A stretch of 64,000 nt of DNA from positions 94,334 to 158,333 of the forward strand of contig JAQVPJ010000001.1 of NCBI GenBank assembly GCA_028702135.1, written 5' to 3'. Each line of letters starts with the position of its first letter. The first letter of the stretch is position 1. The stretch is from Eubacteriales bacterium (GTDB taxonomy: Bacteria; Bacillota; Clostridia; Oscillospirales; CAG-382). The translations under genes and the position numbers were made by a program. Under the pieces are notes generated by a model. It ran no database searches. It had not been told where the DNA came from and saw only the letters and a program-made list of their open reading frames with translations. Below, piece after piece: positions 15,098-22,848 of this stretch.

Positions 15098-16084
15098 TTA
15101 TCTATTTGGTTGTCTTCTTTCTGGGTGTATTAACCAAAAAATCAAAGCTGTCACACATCCTGACGTTATGATTATCAATATGTTAATCGGAGCAACAATG
15201 ATTCCCGGTATACTTTCAAATAGGAATCCGGTGCCGAAACTATACAAATGCCCATGGAGAAGGATCATCTCACCAACATACATAAGGGTGGTCATTATTG
15301 CCGATACAATTGCCGAAATTCCTACTGTGACAAATTTACGCTTGCCGAGAAGGAAGGAACCGACATATATTCCAACCGTTACACCTAAAAGAATGAAAAA
15401 TATGGCCATAAGCGTAGCGGACAAGGGTGATACCTGAATGTTTCCGTCGCGCCAAAAAGCAGTGAAGCAAGCAAGAATGCACAATCCGAGGAAGACGAGA
15501 GATGATATCGATTGCAAAACGAGCGCTTTCAAACGCTTTTTATCACCGTTTCGTATCATCTGAGCAAATCCGTACAGACAGTTCAATACCGAAAGGATAA
15601 GGACAATAGAAATAATGTAGAAATGCAATTTAAAAGCAGGGTTATAGTTGCCCATTAATATATCAACTGGCGTTTGTGTCTTGTATGTAGTAACAGTTTT
15701 ACCCCATCCTTCGGGGGGAATATAACACATATACATTTGCCAATCTTCAAGTTTTGTAACCGTTTCCGCTGTTGTAACCACCACTTTTTTTTCAAACAGT
15801 GTTTCGAGAGCAAAGAAGGTACTGACGGCTAATGCCGATCCGCCGATTAATGCAAAACGCTTGAACAGTTTCATGCATAAGGGCAAGACTAATACGCCGA
15901 CAAGCAGCGCAACGGCAATCGGTGTATATGGGATGATGTACTTCGGGTAATTCTCTTTCATAACCGTACCGTCTGAAATCATATCCCAAACGACTCTCGT
16001 TCCCATATACAGCGGATAAAACGAAGCAATGAGGACGCCGTGGCATGTGAATAGATAATACCTGATAAAGCGCTTGTTTTTCAT
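15098..16084 (-). CDS. polytopic membrane protein of unknown function; last gene of the BlaI/BlaR1-like operon
   Basis: 328 aa, about 8 TM helices. It begins 12 nt after the M56 gene stop. Confidence 0.6.
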   Translation of the reverse strand: MKNKRFIRYYLFTCHGVLIASFYPLYMGTRVVWDMISDGTVMKENYPKYIIPYTPIAVALLVGVLVLPLCMKLFKRFALIGGSALAVSTFFALETLFEKKVVVTTAETVTKLEDWQMYMCYIPPEGWGKTVTTYKTQTPVDILMGNYNPAFKLHFYIISIVLILSVLNCLYGFAQMIRNGDKKRLKALVLQSISSLVFLGLCILACFTAFWRDGNIQVSPLSATLMAIFFILLGVTVGIYVGSFLLGKRKFVTVGISAIVSAIMTTLMYVGEMILLHGHLYSFGTGFLFESIPGIIVAPINILIIITSGCVTALIFWLIHPERRQPNR

Positions 16085-16096
16085 AACAGATTCCTT

Positions 16097-17020
16097 TCAT
16101 CCCGTATTTGTCAGTAGTACATAGAAGATTGTAGCAATCAATGTGAGAAACCCAAATAACGATAACCTTGTCATTTTTTTAAATGAGAGAATATTTTCAA
16201 CTCTAGTGCGGATTTTCGCTCCGCCGAACGACGATGCGAATATGCTCCGGCTGCTCGCGCTTTCGAGCAGTGTCCGTGCATAATCCTTTGCATTGTTTTT
16301 CCCGATTTTCAGAAGCACGCACTCATCGCAGGACAGCTCAATATCGGCAAGAAACGATTTAAGAAATATCCATGCTAATGGGTTGAACCAATGCACCGTG
16401 ACAATCAGAAACGCCATGATCCGCCACAGATTATCCGCTCGGTGGATGTGCATATTTTCGTGCATCAGGATAAATTCGACATCATCTCCGGCCATTCTCT
16501 CAGGCAAAATTATCTTTGGCTTAAATATTCCGTAGACTGCGGGCGATTGAATTTTATCTGAAAAATAAATGTTATCGTGAGATTTCCGTGCATCTTTCAG
16601 CTCGTGAAGCGTTGTAAAATACAGCACAGCAAGTGTTATAAGTATTGCCAAAAGCACCGTAATCCATATTGCAGAAGCAGTTTTGAAAACCTGTTCGAGG
16701 ATATTAACCTTATATGTAATTGGGAAATAACTTTTTGCCGCCGTAATGCTGTTCATCATTGAAAAGGCACTGTCGTCGGCGGGCTGATATACAACAACGG
16801 TTTTTGTAGTGATTTTTGACATCAGAGACATTAAGCTATAGGGACTGCTTAATCCAAACGGTATTATCATTCTGGAAAAAGGAATAATCCAAAATAATAC
16901 CGCGATTCTCCTGGGAATTTTCCGTATCATCCGTACCAGCATCACGATGGCTCCAGCAATTACAGCGGTTATGCTCATATTGAATATCCAGTAGAACACT
17001 TCATCCGGCATATCGTTCAC
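16097..17020 (-). CDS. M56-family (BlaR1/MecR1-like) membrane metalloprotease, short form without a sensor domain
   Basis: 307 aa. HEXXH as HENMH within LMHENMHIHRADNLWR, multiple TM helices. The start overlaps the blaI-like stop by 4 nt. Confidence 0.8.
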   Translation of the reverse strand: MNDMPDEVFYWIFNMSITAVIAGAIVMLVRMIRKIPRRIAVLFWIIPFSRMIIPFGLSSPYSLMSLMSKITTKTVVVYQPADDSAFSMMNSITAAKSYFPITYKVNILEQVFKTASAIWITVLLAILITLAVLYFTTLHELKDARKSHDNIYFSDKIQSPAVYGIFKPKIILPERMAGDDVEFILMHENMHIHRADNLWRIMAFLIVTVHWFNPLAWIFLKSFLADIELSCDECVLLKIGKNNAKDYARTLLESASSRSIFASSFGGAKIRTRVENILSFKKMTRLSLFGFLTLIATIFYVLLTNTG

Positions 17021-17373
17021 CTGCGTTCGATCAGCTTGCGTAGCTCGTCGATCTCACCATCAGACAATGACTCATCCTCAAGCAGAGCCGAAAACAGCGC
17101 TTTTCGCGATCCACCGAACATCTTTTTCAAAAGCGATTCCGCCTCGGTTTTACGGATTTCATCCTTCGAAACAAGCGCCGTGCAGATAAATCCGGGATCG
17201 TCTCGCCGGATAAATCCCTTTGCTTCAAGTTTTTTTAATACGGTATAGGTGGTATTCTTGTTCCATCCGATTGAATCCGCCGCAATCAGGCTGATCTCTT
17301 TTGCGGAGATCGGGCTGTTTTGCCAGATAATCTCCATTACCTTGATCTCGCTGTCAAAAATTTTTTCCTTCAC
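17017..17373 (-). CDS. BlaI/MecI/CopY-family transcriptional repressor
   Basis: 118 aa winged-helix protein: EIKVMEIIWQNSPISAKEI...TTYTVLKKLEAKGFI. GTG start with GGAGG 6 nt upstream. Confidence 0.85.
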   Translation of the reverse strand: MKEKIFDSEIKVMEIIWQNSPISAKEISLIAADSIGWNKNTTYTVLKKLEAKGFIRRDDPGFICTALVSKDEIRKTEAESLLKKMFGGSRKALFSALLEDESLSDGEIDELRKLIERR

Positions 17374-17405
17374 AAAAAACCTCCGCCGGACTATTACTGT
17401 AGTCT

Positions 17406-17434
17406 ATACTATCATAACAGTCTGTACTTGTCAA
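17406..17434 (-). promoter_or_regulatory. promoter of the blaI-like operon with overlapping TACAG/CTGTA-type repeats that may be an operator
   Basis: On the reverse strand: TTGACA (17434-17429), 17 nt, TAGTAT (17411-17406). The spacer and downstream region contain GTACAGACTGT and AGACTACAGTA. Confidence 0.5.
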
Positions 17435-17651
17435 TAGGTTTTAAAATAAAGAGGCGAGAAATATACTACGCTACTCTACTTTATGCATATATCTGTTCCG
17501 TATTGGCGATTTCTCTTCCCCGTTCAGCTATTGTCACAAACCGTTGTGGTTAAAATGTATGATAATGTTTACGGAACACGATTCTAAAAAAGGGCGACAA
17601 TATCTATGATGTGATGATAAGAGTAAACAGTAATTAAAGTTAATAAGTAAT

Positions 17652-17698
17652 TATAAACACTAAAGGACGGGTTTGATGACCATCCTTTAGTGTTTATA
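17652..17698. repeat. inverted repeat or hairpin, 16-bp perfect arms with a 15-nt loop
   Basis: TATAAACACTAAAGGA-cgggtttgatgacca-TCCTTTAGTGTTTATA. Confidence 0.9.
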
Positions 17699-17724
17699 CA
17701 AATAGATATGGAGGAGTTAAAGCA

Positions 17725-17830
17725 CTGTGTGAAAGTAATACGCATCTTCAACGGTATGTACGCCCGTGATCTATCCCGAAAGGTAAAAGCCGCTAAACGA
17801 CAGCTTGCTGAAAAAGCAGACTATGCCGAT
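17725..17830 (+). pseudogene. short fragment resembling the E-helix region of a large serine recombinase
   Basis: Part of track ORF 17690..18004. The segment IRIFNGMYARDLSRKVKAAKRQLAEKADY resembles the xxYARDxSxKxxxA motif of resolvase-type recombinases. No catalytic domain is present. Confidence 0.35.
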
Positions 17831-17871
17831 CAACAGCGAAGTAATGCAGGCAATCACCATTATTTGGCGGT

Positions 17872-18138
17872 TTATAGGATTTTGAGTAAAATATCAATAA
17901 TAAGAAAAACAGTTATAGCTATACTCAAAATATCAAAATGGAGATTGTTAATGCTCTTTGCTTTTTTGTCTTCTATTACTCCTGATTTAACCAGTGCAAT
18001 ATAACAGCCAAATAGTATTAACAGCGCAAAAAATATATTTAACCATGCAAAATCCTTAATAACAATCCATACTGCTGTTACTAAATATGTGATAATGAAT
18101 GTTAGTCTCACAACAGGATTCTTATTCAAAAAAATCAT
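17872..18138 (-). CDS. small 2-3 TM membrane protein, candidate immunity protein of the decayed toxin cassette
   Basis: 88 aa. RBS AGGTGA; the start lies 8 nt after the toxin-frame stop. Confidence 0.5.
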   Translation of the reverse strand: MIFLNKNPVVRLTFIITYLVTAVWIVIKDFAWLNIFFALLILFGCYIALVKSGVIEDKKAKSINNLHFDILSIAITVFLIIDILLKIL

Positions 18139-18146
18139 AAAATCAC

Positions 18147-18730
18147 CTAAAATCTTATATATCCGCTTTTACCATCACGATCTAAACAGTCAATGATCCA
18201 TGCAATACCATAACCAATTGAGAAATTGAGTACATTCCCAACCCAAGTTTGTATTCGTGCTAAAGTAAAAGCTCTCGTGGCCGCATTGGCAGCTTTCCCC
18301 ATAATTTTGTATAAAATTCTGTCCATAGAATTGAAAATCAGTTTGGATATTCCCTTTATTGCTTTTTCATATAATTCTTTAAACCATCGGGAAGTTTTTG
18401 CCCAAGTTACTAATTTCGTTGCTTTGAAAGCAGTAAAGATATACGGTAAAAAACTGTTATAAAGAAATCAAGCGCAACGCCTGACCAAAATGTACTAATG
18501 CTAATTGCCCAAAGTCCTGAAAGATCAATATTCATAACTGGATTGTTTACACAATACGCAAATAAATTTGAACCCAACAGTTCACCTTGAGCAAGCATTA
18601 AAACACTTGCATCATCCGCATTAATAAAGCGACCTATTTCCGGATCATAATATCTCTATTGTAACGAATAGAAGCCCGTCTCTACATCACAATAATACAT
18701 ACGATAACGGTAGGGGTTAAATTTACCGAC
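18147..18730 (-). pseudogene. orphan Rhs/YD-type core-end plus C-terminal toxin cassette, disrupted
   Basis: My reverse-strand translation reads GKFNPYRYRMYYCDVETGFYSLQ*RYYDPEIGRFINADD...NLFAYCVNNPVMNIDLSGL, the Rhs core-end DPxGL-type motif. There is an in-frame TAG at 18656-18658. The frame switches near 18410-18465 into ...WFKELYEKAIKGISKLIFNSMDRILYK...DRDGKSGYIRF*. Confidence 0.7.
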
Positions 18731-18751
18731 AGTCTTTGCAAGGGTTTTAGA

Positions 18752-18870
18752 GGTTGAAAGTAAATTTTTTCATACCGCAAATGAACATACTTTTACACGA
18801 ATATTATAAATTATTTTACATATATTGTCAAGCTGAATAATTCCTGTTGTTTTTGTAATATGTTACAATT
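18752..18870. repeat. copy A of a 119-bp dispersed promoter/leader repeat
   Basis: Ungapped manual alignment with 46024-46142 gives 98/119 identical positions. Confidence 0.85.
18803..18831 (-). promoter_or_regulatory. consensus sigma-A promoter inside repeat copy A
   Basis: On the reverse strand: TTGACA (18831-18826), 17 nt, TATAAT (18808-18803). Confidence 0.65.
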
Positions 18871-18926
18871 TTTCAGAATAGGTTATAACCAAACCGTTAT
18901 GTTGTGCTGAAAAAAGCAAAAAACAC

Positions 18927-18955
18927 TTGACAATTTATACAAATGTCATTATAAT
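18927..18955 (+). promoter_or_regulatory. consensus sigma-A promoter driving the long leader of the fusion-gene operon
   Basis: TTGACA 18927-18932, 17-nt spacer, TATAAT 18950-18955. Confidence 0.7.
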
Positions 18956-18961
18956 CGAACT

Positions 18962-19300
18962 ATCTTAAAAAAAGCATTGAAGGGGAATAAGCATTTGCAG
19001 TTTTGCGCTTTAAGAGAGTCGCCGGTCGGTGCGAGGCGATACGCAGGCATTTCGCGAGCTCGCCCCGGAGCTGTCCGCTGAACACAAGAATCGCATTTTG
19101 TTATGTGATTTGTTGCAAGTAGGCGAGAACGGGTTTCTCACCGTTATCAAAGAGGCGATGTTGACTGACATTGTAACATATGATAATACGACGATACCTT
19201 TTACGGCTCATATTATGCTTAGCAACTTTAAGTATATTTGAACCGGTTTTTTATACTTAATTCAAATTCCCGCTTTCGGTGGTTTTCACCCTCAAGGAAA
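18962..19300 (+). ncRNA. T-box-like 5' leader with a non-canonical 3' part
   Basis: AGAGA at 19013-19017. Helix GUCGCC/GGCGAU encloses GGUCGGUGCGA, which carries the distal-loop GGUGNRA motif. GAA-CAC-A at 19080-19086. AGUAGG at 19118-19123. F-box CCGUUA at 19141-19146. No GGGUGGNACCGCG and no GC-rich terminator were found. Confidence 0.5.
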
Positions 19301-19314
19301 GGTTGGTTATATTT

Positions 19315-21855
19315 ATGAAAATTGCTTTTTCCACATTGGCGTGTCCGGATTTCAGCTTTCCGGAGATATACTCAATGGCGACAGACCTCGGTTTTGACGG
19401 CATTGAGGTCAGAGGCCTGGGCCTTGATATTTTTGACGGAAGGACGCTCCCGTTCTCTGAAAATCAACTACCGCAAACAGTAAAGAAGCTGAAATCCCTG
19501 AATCTTGAGATATCCTGCCTTTCCTCCGGATGCTGCTTGAAATATGCAGATAAGGCGGAAACGAACATTTCCGAAATAAAGAAGTATATAAAGCTTGCAG
19601 GCGTGCTTGGAACTAAGTATATAAGGATTCTCGGCGACCTTAATCCCGCGCCTTCCGATGATGAACAGCCGGTGGACGATGATGTCGTTTATTCACAGCT
19701 CTCGGAGCTTATACCATTTGCGGAACAGAATAATGTAACCCTGCTTGTAGAAACGAACGGGGTTTACAGCGATACGGGACGCCTCAAGGAACTGCTTGAC
19801 CGTCTTAAAAGCGATTATGTCGGCGCGCTCTGGGATGTTCACCATCCTTACAGGTATAAAAACGAAACTCCCGAAAAAACTGTTCAGAATCTCGGTATGT
19901 ATATACGTTATGTGCATGTAAAAGACAGTGTTGTGGTTGACGGTAAGGTAAAATACCGCCTTATGGGCGAGGGCGACCTGCCTGTTTCCGAAATGATTGC
20001 AGCTTTGGCTTCAATTAATTATGTCGGCTATTTGTCGCTCGAATGGGTTAAAAGATGGGCTCCAGATCTTGAGGACGCCGGAATCGTTTTCCCACATTAT
20101 GTAAACTTTATGTCCAAATACACCGGCAAAGGACAATATTCGGGGACTCTCATAAGCAATATGAGGGGCGACGGAAAATATATATGGGAAAAGAACCTGC
20201 TTATCGACCTCACATTTCCTCAGGTACTTGACCGGGTATGCGAGGCTTTTCCGAATCAATATGCTTTCAGATATACCACCTGCGACTACACCCGTACTTA
20301 TGTACAGTTCCGCGACGATGTGGACCGCTTCGCACGCGCTTTGATTTCCATCGGTGTAAAAAGAGGGGATCATGTGGCAATCTGGGCGACAAACGTACCC
20401 GAATGGTTCATAACCTTTTGGGCGACTACAAAGATCGGTGCGGTTTTGGTTACGGTCAACACCGCTTATAAAATTTACGAAGCGGAATACCTTTTGCGCC
20501 AGTCCGATACCCATACCCTCGTTATGATAGACGGTTATAAGGACAGCGATTATGTTTCTATTATTAAAGAACTCTGCCCTGAGCTTGAAAATACAGAGCC
20601 GGGAAAACCTCTGTATTCAAAGCGTTTACCGTTTCTGCGCAATATAATTACCGTAACCAGCAAGCAAAAAGGATGCTTAACCTGGGATGAGGCGATGGAA
20701 TATGCCGAAAAAACCCCGATTGAGGAGGTTCACCGCAGGGCTGCTTCCATAGGTAAATTCGATGTCTGCAATATGCAGTATACCTCCGGAACTACCGGAT
20801 TTCCGAAGGGTGTTATGCTCACGCATTACAATGTAGTAAACAACGGCAAATCCATAGGCGATGGTATGGATTTAAGCACTGCCGACAGAATGATGATTCA
20901 GGTGCCGATGTTCCATTGCTTTGGAATGGTGCTTTCCATGACGGCGTGTATGACACACGGTACGACTATGTCGCCAATACCGTATTTCAGAACTAAGGAT
21001 TCGCTCGAATGTATAAACAAGGAAAAGATAACTGCGTTCAACGGTGTTCCAACAATGTTTATCGCAATGATGGAGCATGAGGATTTTGAAAAGACAGATT
21101 TTTCTCACATAAGGACCGGCATAATGGCAGGCTCTCCCTGCCCCGTCAAGGTAATGCAGGATGTTGTCGATAAGATGAATATGACTGAAATCACTATAGT
21201 TTACGGACAGACCGAATCCTCTCCCGGTGATACTATGAGCACAACTACCGACAGCGTAGAGGTTCGGGTAAACACAGTAGGAAAAGCGATGTTCGGGGTG
21301 GAGTGCAGGATAGTCGATCCCGAAACGGGGAAGGTTCTGCCCGACAACACAGACGGCGAGCTTGTTGCAAGAGGATATAATATTATGAAAGGCTATTATA
21401 AAATGCCCCAGGCAACGGCAAACGCAATCGATGCCGATGGCTGGCTCCACACCGGGGATCTTGCGCGCAGGGACGAAAACGGTTATTATAAGATTACCGG
21501 CAGGATAAAGGATATGATAATCCGCGGAGGCGAGAACATTTATCCAAAGGAGATAGAGGATTTTATATACACGCATCCAAAGGTAAGAGATGTTCAGGTT
21601 ATAGGCGTTCCCGACAAACAATACGGCGAGGAGATTATGGCCTGTGTCATTCTGAGGGAAGGACAGACGATGACAGAGGACGAACTCAAGGATTATGTCC
21701 GCACTCATATGGCAAAGCATAAAACTCCGCGTTATGTTGATTTTGTAGCCGAGTTCCCCATGAATGCGGCGGGTAAAATACTGAAGTATAAAATGCGTGA
21801 AAACGCCGTTGAAAAGTTAGGTTTGCAGACGGAGAGCAAAATAGTTACCGCTTAG
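19315..21855 (+). CDS. fusion protein: N-terminal sugar-phosphate isomerase/epimerase-type TIM barrel, C-terminal AMP-forming acyl-CoA ligase
   Basis: Track ORF starts at GTG 19279; I prefer ATG 19315 (MKIAFSTLACPDF). TIM-barrel motifs: LVETN, WDVHH, VHVKD, SLEW. Ligase motifs: YTSGTTGFPKGV, GWLHTGD, RGGENIYPKEIE, GKILK. Confidence 0.8.
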   Translation: MKIAFSTLACPDFSFPEIYSMATDLGFDGIEVRGLGLDIFDGRTLPFSENQLPQTVKKLKSLNLEISCLSSGCCLKYADKAETNISEIKKYIKLAGVLGTKYIRILGDLNPAPSDDEQPVDDDVVYSQLSELIPFAEQNNVTLLVETNGVYSDTGRLKELLDRLKSDYVGALWDVHHPYRYKNETPEKTVQNLGMYIRYVHVKDSVVVDGKVKYRLMGEGDLPVSEMIAALASINYVGYLSLEWVKRWAPDLEDAGIVFPHYVNFMSKYTGKGQYSGTLISNMRGDGKYIWEKNLLIDLTFPQVLDRVCEAFPNQYAFRYTTCDYTRTYVQFRDDVDRFARALISIGVKRGDHVAIWATNVPEWFITFWATTKIGAVLVTVNTAYKIYEAEYLLRQSDTHTLVMIDGYKDSDYVSIIKELCPELENTEPGKPLYSKRLPFLRNIITVTSKQKGCLTWDEAMEYAEKTPIEEVHRRAASIGKFDVCNMQYTSGTTGFPKGVMLTHYNVVNNGKSIGDGMDLSTADRMMIQVPMFHCFGMVLSMTACMTHGTTMSPIPYFRTKDSLECINKEKITAFNGVPTMFIAMMEHEDFEKTDFSHIRTGIMAGSPCPVKVMQDVVDKMNMTEITIVYGQTESSPGDTMSTTTDSVEVRVNTVGKAMFGVECRIVDPETGKVLPDNTDGELVARGYNIMKGYYKMPQATANAIDADGWLHTGDLARRDENGYYKITGRIKDMIIRGGENIYPKEIEDFIYTHPKVRDVQVIGVPDKQYGEEIMACVILREGQTMTEDELKDYVRTHMAKHKTPRYVDFVAEFPMNAAGKILKYKMRENAVEKLGLQTESKIVTA

Positions 21856-21915: not shown

Positions 21916-22848
21916 ATGAAGATTCTAATCATAAACGGGCCGAATTTGAACCTGCTCGGTCTGAGAGAACCTGCTGTTTACGGCAGCAGAACATATTCGG
22001 ATTTATGCACTTTCATCGGGGATGTGTGCGTAGAGCATAATATTGAGTATAAGCTGTTTCAATCTAACAGTGAGAGCGCTATTATTGATGAGATTCAAGC
22101 TGCATACGGCGTTTTTGACGGTATTGTCATCAATCCTGCGGCTTATACTCATACGAGTATCGCCATTCCCGACGCTATCAAAGCGGTTGGAGTTCCGGCG
22201 ATAGAGGTACATATTTCTAATATATACGAAAGAGAGGAGTACAGGCATCGGTCCTTTACCTCTCAGGCCTGTATCACAACGATCTATGGGCTTGGTTTCG
22301 ATGGTTACAAAAATGCGCTTATTTTACTGAAGGATTATTTGACAAAGGGCATAAAGCCCGAACAGGGAAAAGCGCCGGACGGCAGGAAAATTGCCGGATT
22401 TTTAAAAGTGAGCAGGCAGAATTACCAGCCTGCAGAGCATTACGGGGATATAAAGCTTCCGCTAAGAGCGACTGAAGGTTCCGCTGGTTATGATTTTTTC
22501 GCACCTTATGACATAGCGCTTGAACCGCACCAGACGGTTACTGTTCCCACGGGTATCCGTGCAAGGATAGACAAAGGCTGGGTGTTGATGATTTTTCCAC
22601 GCTCCGGGCTTGGATTCAAGTACCGTCTTATGCTTAACAATACAGTCGGCATAATTGATTCGGATTATTTTTATTCCGATAACGAAGGCCATATTTTTAT
22701 TCGTTTTACCAATGGTGACTCTCCTCTTTGCATAAGAAAAGGCGATGCTTTCGCTCAGGGTGTTTTCGTTCCGTATGGTATAACGTCGGATGACTGCACC
22801 GATGCGGTCCGCAACGGCGGCTTCGGGAGTACAGATATAAAAAAGTAA
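21916..22848 (+). CDS. fusion protein: type II 3-dehydroquinate dehydratase (N-terminal) and trimeric dUTPase (C-terminal)
   Basis: 310 aa. N-terminal part: MKILIINGPNLNLLGLREPAVYG, NPAAYTHTSIAIPDA, EVHISN. C-terminal part: AGYD, PRSG, GIIDSDY, KGDAFAQ, GGFGST. Confidence 0.8.
   Translation: MKILIINGPNLNLLGLREPAVYGSRTYSDLCTFIGDVCVEHNIEYKLFQSNSESAIIDEIQAAYGVFDGIVINPAAYTHTSIAIPDAIKAVGVPAIEVHISNIYEREEYRHRSFTSQACITTIYGLGFDGYKNALILLKDYLTKGIKPEQGKAPDGRKIAGFLKVSRQNYQPAEHYGDIKLPLRATEGSAGYDFFAPYDIALEPHQTVTVPTGIRARIDKGWVLMIFPRSGLGFKYRLMLNNTVGIIDSDYFYSDNEGHIFIRFTNGDSPLCIRKGDAFAQGVFVPYGITSDDCTDAVRNGGFGSTDIKK

Follow-up and report, generated by a model that had tools for sequence, protein, structure and literature searches.

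A solitary, decayed orphan Rhs toxin cassette with an intact candidate immunity gene in an uncultured Clostridiales bacterium

The minus strand of the 64,000-nucleotide stretch analysed here (the window), taken from contig JAQVPJ010000001.1 of an Eubacteriales bacterium, carries a truncated and inactivated piece of an rhs gene, comprising the end of the Rhs core and a C-terminal toxin domain. Directly behind it lies an intact open reading frame (ORF) of 88 amino acids (aa), the candidate immunity gene. The initial annotation had described a decayed orphan Rhs-type toxin cassette with an intact candidate immunity gene, and each element of that description held when tested; every statement on the sequence of the locus was confirmed by a direct re-reading of the strand. 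We consider it probable, though with clear reserve, that this is a solitary orphan module whose toxin remnant was recently inactivated, and whose immunity gene has been retained and is expressed as protection against the Rhs toxins of neighbours. This reading starts from the anatomy of the cassette, its lesions, the conserved pairing of the two genes and the fusion of the toxin domain to YD-repeat proteins elsewhere, all of which are directly observed.

The remnant extends from 18769 to 18147 and encodes the last ~85 codons of the core, followed by a C-terminal domain of ~121 aa. Its first frame (frame A) reads KNLLSTSKTLAKTVGKFNPYRYRMYYCDVETGFYSLQ, then a TAG stop at 18656–18658, then RYYDPEIGRFINADD...NLFAYCVNNPVMNIDLSGLWAISISTFWSGVALDFFITVF; in full, the reading around the TAG is KNLLSTSKTLAKTVGKFNPYRYRMYYCDVETGFYSLQ before it and RYYDPEIGRFINADDASVLMLAQGELLGSNLFAYCVNNPVMNIDLSGLWAISISTFWSGVALDFFITVF after it. 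For profile searches, we used a conceptually repaired 207-aa translation. This product matches the NCBIfam model TIGR03696 (RHS repeat-associated core domain) with 63.4 bits (E 2e-17, positions 13–76 of 76) against a curated cutoff of 32.5 bits, a similarity to Rhs cores that is far above chance, while no Pfam model matches it. A custom profile built from the Rhs parts of related cassettes yields 115 bits, and its alignment begins at the window residue K at 18769, with nothing further upstream. The homology thus starts at 18769 and not at 18730, where it had been placed before. The core-end remnant, 5′-truncated and running through the DLSGL junction, occupies 18512–18769, so that ~260 nucleotides (nt) of core-end sequence are kept. 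Its junction NIDLSGLW aligns with the DPxGxW of the homologues, in which the D is found in 43 of 46 sequences and the G in 42 of 46. At conserved core positions the window has several non-consensus residues (G/S24M, Y27C, Y35S and a stop in place of S38), and it follows the core consensus from RYYDP onward.

The 5′ edge of the remnant is sharp. The codon directly upstream of the Rhs homology is TGA (18770–18772), a start codon is absent, and the sole in-frame ATG ahead of the TAG yields a peptide of 14 aa. As had been proposed, the 64 kb contain no body of YD repeats: tblastn with YD-bearing relatives matches 18823–18150 alone. Likewise, tblastn with the core piece, the toxin and the immunity protein gave no second match in the window. 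A hidden upstream continuation of the gene was considered and rejected, as the tblastn match reached 18823 but the profile alignment begins at 18769, past the TGA. Since the profile stops at 18769, a TGA lies beside it and nothing else in the 64 kb matches, the locus is a 5′-truncated fragment, rather than a gene whose upstream portion had been overlooked, in agreement with the earlier expectation that a full-length gene was unlikely to continue upstream. We propose that 18147–18769 be annotated as a pseudogene fragment and that the 59-aa and 62-aa ORFs called there by some pipelines be removed.

In total, the toxin remnant is broken in three ways: by the TGA edge without a start codon, by the TAG in the core and by a deletion of one nucleotide. 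The TAG replaces the Ser of the LQSRYYDP motif, a column at which Ser is near-invariant (49 of 52 homologous core ends); the initial annotation had named Ser or Asn for this position. That annotation had also seen a switch of frame around 18410–18465. The switch is real, and its exact site can now be given as a T6 run at 18448–18453 from which one nucleotide is missing. Comparison with the closest relative (L002 among the related loci) makes this apparent: the window reads ACAGTTTTTTACCG where L002 has ACAGTATTTTTACCA, which encodes TVFLP. At the site itself, GTTTTTTA in the window stands against GTATTTTTA in the relative, whose codons are ACA GTA TTT TTA CCA (T V F L P). The second frame reads LPYIFTAFKATKLV...DRDGKSGYIRF up to the toxin-frame stop at 18147–18149, and in full LPYIFTAFKATKLVTWAKTSRWFKELYEKAIKGISKLIFNSMDRILYKIMGKAANAATRAFTLARIQTWVGNVLNFSIGYGIAWIIDCLDRDGKSGYIRF. 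Intact homologues read ITVFLPYIFTAFKATKLV straight over the junction, which validates the conceptual repair of the frameshift. Taken together, the absent start codon, the TGA edge, the TAG in the core and the one-nucleotide deletion in the toxin domain predict that the toxin part is not producible. In the transcript, the frameshift site (18448–18456, minus strand) reads GUU UUU UAC, and a –1 slip there would restore the homologous V-F-L-P-Y exactly. The phase of this U-run is not that of a canonical slippery heptamer, the run does not occur in the closest relative, and the match is probably a coincidence.

The breaks are not errors of sequencing or assembly. Ten assemblies from at least four projects (ENA ERZ724xxx and ERZ27283xxx, JGI 3300029825, Logan SRR1561994, NCBI DOHR01 and DAIUFF01) are 100% identical to the window over 17600–19000, TAG and T-run with its deletion included, bar one substitution in one strain. 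The identical lesions in assemblies of several projects rule out an artefact as their source, and the initial annotation had already held errors to be unlikely. The single polymorphism, T>G at 18831 in L014, hits the minus-strand promoter described below, at position 1 of its –35 hexamer.

The toxin domain (18147–18511, minus strand) comprises the ~121 aa past DLSGL, split over the two frames, and has homologues that are 60–80% identical. In the family alignment its hallmarks are TAFKAT...GKAANAAT...IDxxDxDGKSGYIRF, the last of which is C-terminal. The domain is rare. Among 5.8 billion proteins, a word-indexed search recovered only 7 clusters that contain it, all of them short pieces; when 1.84 billion representatives were searched exhaustively with a profile, 21 clusters at 50% identity came up (E ≤ 1e-3). 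It is fused behind YD repeats and an Rhs core in P0017 (718 aa), P0012, P0009 and P0008, and by this architecture is genuine Rhs cargo. The domain had been said to resemble no family that could be named, and it indeed has no match in Pfam, NCBIfam or PHROGs, while its profile finds 0 matches at E ≤ 10 among all PDB sequences. Judged by these searches, the toxin/immunity family appears to be new, its toxin domain being rare and unannotated.

The composition of the domain points to the membrane. Kyte-Doolittle hydropathy indicates one transmembrane (TM)-like span at residues 15–37 and a moderately hydrophobic second helix, and distant members of the family have two clear TM-like spans. Residues 43–90 are strongly amphipathic and rich in lysine and arginine (hydrophobic moment 1.3–2.0), and the net charge is +8. 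A first AlphaFold2 model was poor, with a predicted local distance difference test score (pLDDT) of 47. Modelling from an alignment of 23 sequences gave an all-helical fold of four helices at low confidence (pLDDT 62, predicted template modelling score 0.43), and Foldseek of this model against the PDB returned non-specific helical matches only (E ≥ 2). By analogy with Tse5-CT and its immunity protein Tsi5 and with the ionophores of contact-dependent inhibition, all discussed below, we infer that the toxin domain would insert into and depolarise membranes and would be neutralised within the membrane.

The candidate immunity gene (17872–18138, minus strand) starts with an ATG 8 nt past the toxin stop. 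Its Shine-Dalgarno sequence AGGTGA overlaps this stop, with a spacing of AGGTGA-N6-ATG, in line with the good ribosome-binding site noted before. The 88-aa product had been credited with two to three TM helices; hydropathy shows three hydrophobic spans, and the basic residues at the N-terminus and in the second loop suggest an N-in, C-out topology. A 100% identical protein (P0027) is found on at least 23 contigs, including those of two NCBI metagenome-assembled genomes (MAGs) labelled Clostridiales bacterium (GCA_003511265.1 and GCA_036844745.1). The ORF had been named as the expected immunity gene from its position, and comparative data bear this out: it is co-conserved with the toxin domain, and homologues of 85–102 aa, 75–81% identical or more distant, directly follow the toxin domain in L001–L006, L018 and L021. 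This pairing of toxin domain and small membrane ORF recurs in unrelated metagenome contigs. A small hydrophobic ORF follows the toxin domain in every case, save in L007, where an insertion sequence (IS) stands in its place. In L019, a distant member of the subfamily, the ORF behind the toxin domain is a small multi-TM one that is not homologous. The copy in L007 is itself of interest: an IS transposase (HTH_Tnp_1) at 2363–2709 replaces the immunity gene, and the conserved C-terminal GYIRF of the toxin domain has become GGVIS, making this another decayed copy of the family.

Comparing the related loci reveals how such cassettes are bounded. At the nucleotide level, the closest cassette is 83% identical to the window over 18519–17852, a stretch that opens at the D-x-x-G junction and closes 20 nt behind the immunity stop. 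These limits are the modular boundary expected of polymorphic-toxin cassettes. In L002–L005 and L007, the relatives with enough upstream sequence, the Rhs homology likewise begins abruptly behind stop codons, and L001 has a longer truncated Rhs piece behind another YD-shell gene. In L019, the 718-aa version, annotated RHS_repeat/TEN_YD-shell, is located downstream of a 1704-aa Rhs protein (DUF6531 and RHS repeats) and its 138-aa partner, which is the classical orphan position. A scan of species-representative genomes added a single locus, L018, and missed the window's own genome. In L002 (1–2884) and L004 (1–2488), a cassette with identical P0001 flanks one and the same block on both sides; the block holds a 233-aa ORF, a 73-aa ORF, a DUF7878 gene and, on the opposite strand, DUF4368, the C-terminus of a serine recombinase. 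This pattern suggests either two copies of the cassette around the block or a small circular or mobile element.

The substitution pattern bears on when the toxin was lost. Against the closest cassette (L002), the pairwise ratio of non-synonymous to synonymous substitution rates (dN/dS, ω) amounts to 0.23 in the toxin domain and to 0.21 in the immunity gene. When the lineage of the window is compared with an outgroup, the toxin domain has no excess of non-synonymous change, and all positions that are invariant among close homologues are kept in it. This pattern argues for purifying selection having shaped the toxin and immunity genes over most of their divergence. Given the low ω and the retention of the invariant positions, the inactivation is recent relative to the divergence of the cassettes.

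Upstream of the cassette lies a perfect sigma-70-type promoter, TTGACA-17 nt-TATAAT, at 18803–18831 on the minus strand (12 of 12 consensus positions). It is predicted to act as a promoter and is oriented towards the cassette, with ~35 nt between its end and the start of the Rhs homology. A promoter had been placed at 18752, abutting the remnant; its actual position is the one given here. Only two perfect sites of this type exist in the 64 kb, back to back, where 0 are expected by chance; the other, at 18927–18955 on the plus strand, precedes a T-box leader. The simplest reading would be a transcript that starts at ~18796 and covers first the dead toxin and then the immunity gene. A hairpin with 19-bp arms and a 9-nt loop (17652–17698, minus strand; inverted repeat; fold –26 kcal/mol, z = –7.4) lies ~175 nt behind the immunity stop, in the interval that separates the cassette from the BlaI operon, and is unique in the window. 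It could mark the end of the transcript or stabilise it, a terminator being the putative role. An Rfam scan of the minus strand of the cassette region found nothing relevant, and a weak match of the hairpin to mir-968 was dismissed as chance.

The cassette is also set apart by its surroundings. Its region is AT-rich, with 32–36% G+C compared to 43–47% in the flanks, and it has a T-box-regulated gene on one side and a BlaI/BlaR1 operon on the other. In search of an empty site, we compared 80 metagenome loci with BlaI homologues that are 38–82% identical. The BlaI-BlaR1-membrane protein operon and its promoter/operator are common to these loci, and none of the 80 has the Rhs piece, the toxin domain, the immunity gene, the AMP-binding gene or the upstream region of the window. 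As the cassette is present in 0 of 80 loci, it is a lineage-specific insertion. None of the 80 provides an orthologous empty site, and the boundaries of the insertion are therefore approximate, at about 17452–18900.

Taken together, the locus may be understood as a solitary orphan Rhs-CT (C-terminal toxin)/immunity module in an uncultured Clostridiales bacterium represented by MAG GCA_003511265.1 and its relatives, in which a truncated rhs piece, made up of the core end and the toxin domain, has stayed with its cognate immunity gene. Having its own ribosome-binding site and start codon, the immunity gene would probably be transcribed from the promoter at 18831–18803 through the dead toxin. Its three-helix product of 88 aa would reside in the cytoplasmic membrane and disarm toxins of this family when neighbouring bacteria deliver them, so that the gene would serve as orphan immunity or acquired defence. 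In relatives whose toxin is intact, the domain would most likely be released from the Rhs shell at the D-x-x-G junction. The hydrophobic helices and the cationic, amphipathic ones could then carry the freed toxin into the target membrane, where it would dissipate the potential. The expression of the immunity gene, the protection it would confer and the membrane mode of action are the parts of this scheme that we infer. They have precedents: orphan modules that do not have initiation signals of their own are described, with orphan immunity genes that are expressed and protective (PMC3150448), and Tsi5, a protein with two TM helices, counters the pore-forming Rhs toxin Tse5-CT (PMC9637101).

Several points weigh against this interpretation. 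At the lesion density of the toxin (2 lesions in 207 codons), ~0.85 lesions are predicted in 88 codons, and the probability of finding none is ~0.43; by itself, the intact 88-aa ORF gives no statistical evidence of selection and is compatible with chance. The sampled strains are near-clonal (~99.95% identical over 4–8 kb), and the population sample therefore says nothing on selection and carries no signal of it for the immunity gene. The promoter may predate the cassette or serve something else, and the U-tail of the hairpin is weak. The mode of action proposed for the toxin is drawn only from the composition of the domain and the membrane nature of the immunity protein. Its likeness to pore-formers has no counterpart in a sequence or fold match to a characterised member, by PDB profile search or Foldseek, and the structural model is of low confidence (pLDDT 62).

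These points feed the view that the module is a relic of a past insertion, without function even in its immunity gene; the 88-aa ORF would still be intact only since it is short and the decay is recent. This account can draw on the ~43% expectation of an unbroken ORF at the lesion density of the toxin, on the silence of the near-clonal strains about selection and on the low G+C content, which marks a foreign insertion. It can also point out that neither a cognate attacker nor a parent rhs gene was found: the best core-end match among the 5.8 billion proteins is 66% identical, a result whose reach is limited by MAG incompleteness. The proteins of the NCBI MAG are part of this collection, because the immunity protein was found there. 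Against decay of the entire module stand the 12-of-12 consensus promoter facing the cassette and the intact Shine-Dalgarno sequence and ATG of the immunity gene. Moreover, orphan immunity genes are commonly expressed and protective (PMC3150448), and the lesions are confined to the part whose loss is harmless or beneficial. We regard a pure relic as unlikely, although it is the main rival.

It would be more doubtful still to see in the locus a silent reservoir cassette, which recombines via core-end homology onto a full-length rhs gene elsewhere in the genome and so changes the toxin/immunity type of the strain. This is the classical proposal for orphan modules (PMC3150448; PMC3482391), the ~260 nt of core-end sequence would offer the homology, and relatives of the cassette do occur in arrays downstream of Rhs genes (L001, L007 and L019). 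However, the toxin is doubly broken, and a recombinant would be functional only if the crossover occurred past the TAG and the frameshift were reverted. There is no Rhs gene within the 64 kb, conserved core residues have already drifted, and with the best core end in the 5.8 billion proteins at only 66% identity no recombination partner is visible. We thus hold a reservoir function to be improbable.

Least credible of all is low-level production of the toxin from the internal ATG at 18598 (MLAQGE...), with a –1 slip on GUU UUU UAC restoring ITVF-LPYIF to give a toxin-antitoxin-like pair, as proposed for Salmonella orphan Rhs: the slip on the U6 run would yield exactly the homologous residues, the toxin domain has no excess of non-synonymous change, and internally expressed orphan Rhs toxins acting as toxin-antitoxin modules have a precedent (PMC7043789). 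Against such production, no Shine-Dalgarno sequence precedes the ATG, the phase of the U-run departs from the canonical X XXY YYZ, and a stimulatory structure further downstream was not identified. In the closest relative the T-run is absent (GTATTTTTA), which makes the site look like a simple deletion, and a product without the Rhs shell would have no export route.

An immunity gene kept as protection beside a dead toxin is therefore the reading we retain. More tentatively, and with slightly less than even confidence, we suggest that the toxin domain and its three-helix partner of 85–102 aa could form an undescribed membrane-depolarising family confined to uncultured gut/rumen-type Clostridia. 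Of this family, the species may have kept the immunity half alone and placed under a consensus promoter, where it would defend the cell against Rhs attack by itself. If this were true, the locus would be a Gram-positive counterpart of the acquired orphan-immunity islands of Bacteroidales and Proteobacteria.

Several neighbouring features of the window were recorded alongside. The T-box leader (18968–19188, plus strand; RF00230) is a full-length match of 67.9 bits, below the gathering score of 93 but with an E of 4.5e-14. It precedes an 858-aa ORF at 19279–21855 that fuses AP_endonuc_2 (a xylose-isomerase-like TIM barrel) with an AMP-binding domain, an unusual gene for tRNA-sensing control. Further along, a 310-aa ORF (21916–22848, plus strand) has the Pfam domains DHquinase_II (type II 3-dehydroquinase) and dUTPase, an odd fusion. 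On the other side of the cassette, the downstream unit (15098–17450, minus strand) encodes a BlaI-like repressor, a BlaR1-like M56 peptidase and a 328-aa polytopic membrane protein; its promoter/operator (17383–17450, ~60 nt) is conserved in more than 40 related metagenome loci. A short open frame on the plus strand (17708–17870; MEELKHCVKVIRIFNGMYARDLSRKVKAAKRQLAEKADYA...) converges on the immunity gene and may be non-coding. It was considered as a serine-recombinase remnant, given the DUF4368 genes that neighbour the cassette in L002 and L004, an idea that was dropped as it had no database support; Pfam, PHROGs and tblastn against the L002/L004 loci and against plasmids gave no support for the frame.

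The significance of the locus is modest and twofold. The rare toxin domain, with its co-evolving small membrane immunity protein, is probably a new membrane-targeting toxin of anaerobic Firmicutes, in which interbacterial antagonism is poorly charted. Besides, the locus offers a clean case of a solitary, promoter-equipped orphan immunity gene beside a freshly inactivated toxin, from which one may ask whether immunity genes are gathered by gut Clostridia in the way known from Bacteroidales.

The overall organisation of the locus is reminiscent of the orphan rhs-CT/rhsI and cdiA-CT/cdiI modules (Poole et al. 2011, PMC3150448) and of the cassettes of Zhang et al. 2012 (PMC3482391). All consist of a 5′-truncated toxin fragment that keeps the junction motif and does not have initiation signals, directly followed by a small immunity gene with its own Shine-Dalgarno sequence and ATG, and the homology between cassettes is bounded by the junction on one side and by a point shortly behind the immunity gene on the other. 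However, the module of the window is solitary, without a main rhs locus or array, which is a typical but not obligatory feature. It has a consensus promoter of its own instead of rhs read-through, its toxin carries inactivating mutations, and its host is an uncultured Clostridiales bacterium of Gram-positive type and not a proteobacterium. The locus is thus no rhs gene, as it has no YD shell, and it shows the features of an orphan toxin/immunity module that we tested for, except for a location in an array.

Comparing the toxin domain with characterised membrane toxins reveals resemblances in general design. Tse5 of P. aeruginosa (PA2684; PMC9637101) likewise has an Rhs C-terminal domain of ~120–150 aa, without enzymatic signature, right after a DPxGL-type junction, with predicted transmembrane and amphipathic helices and a small integral membrane immunity protein. 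Whereas Tsi5 has two TM helices, three are predicted in the 88-aa protein, and there is no detectable similarity of sequence or fold between the toxins (PDB profile search, none at E ≤ 10; best Foldseek E = 2). The context of delivery differs as well, with no type VI secretion system or PAAR and a host among Clostridia, and the activity of the domain is a predicted one. The ionophores of contact-dependent inhibition (CDI) systems (CdiA-CT EC93 group, PMC11630599) are polymorphic helical-bundle membrane toxins with specific small membrane immunity proteins, their CdiI being polytopic, and they too occur in orphan modules. In contrast to the domain of the window, they are carried by CdiA with a VENN junction, have a two-domain CT and receptor-dependent entry, form five-helix bundles where about four helices are predicted here, are confined to proteobacteria and have no detected sequence similarity to it. 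Tox-WTIP, a pore-forming domain on RHS and PVC toxins with RxxR and Wx[ST]IP motifs in two TM helices (PMC3482391), is similarly non-enzymatic, has membrane-spanning helices and is found at the C-terminus of RHS-repeat proteins. It is proteobacterial, however, and neither motif occurs in the alignment of the window family. Judged by sequence, motif and fold, the toxin domain compared here with Tse5-CT, the CDI ionophores and Tox-WTIP is not assigned to any of the three; the likeness is one of how it would work. In its architecture the locus is a textbook case of a polymorphic toxin, and a specialist would find no surprise in it; the novelty lies in the toxin/immunity family and in its solitary, promoter-equipped arrangement in an uncultured Clostridiales lineage.

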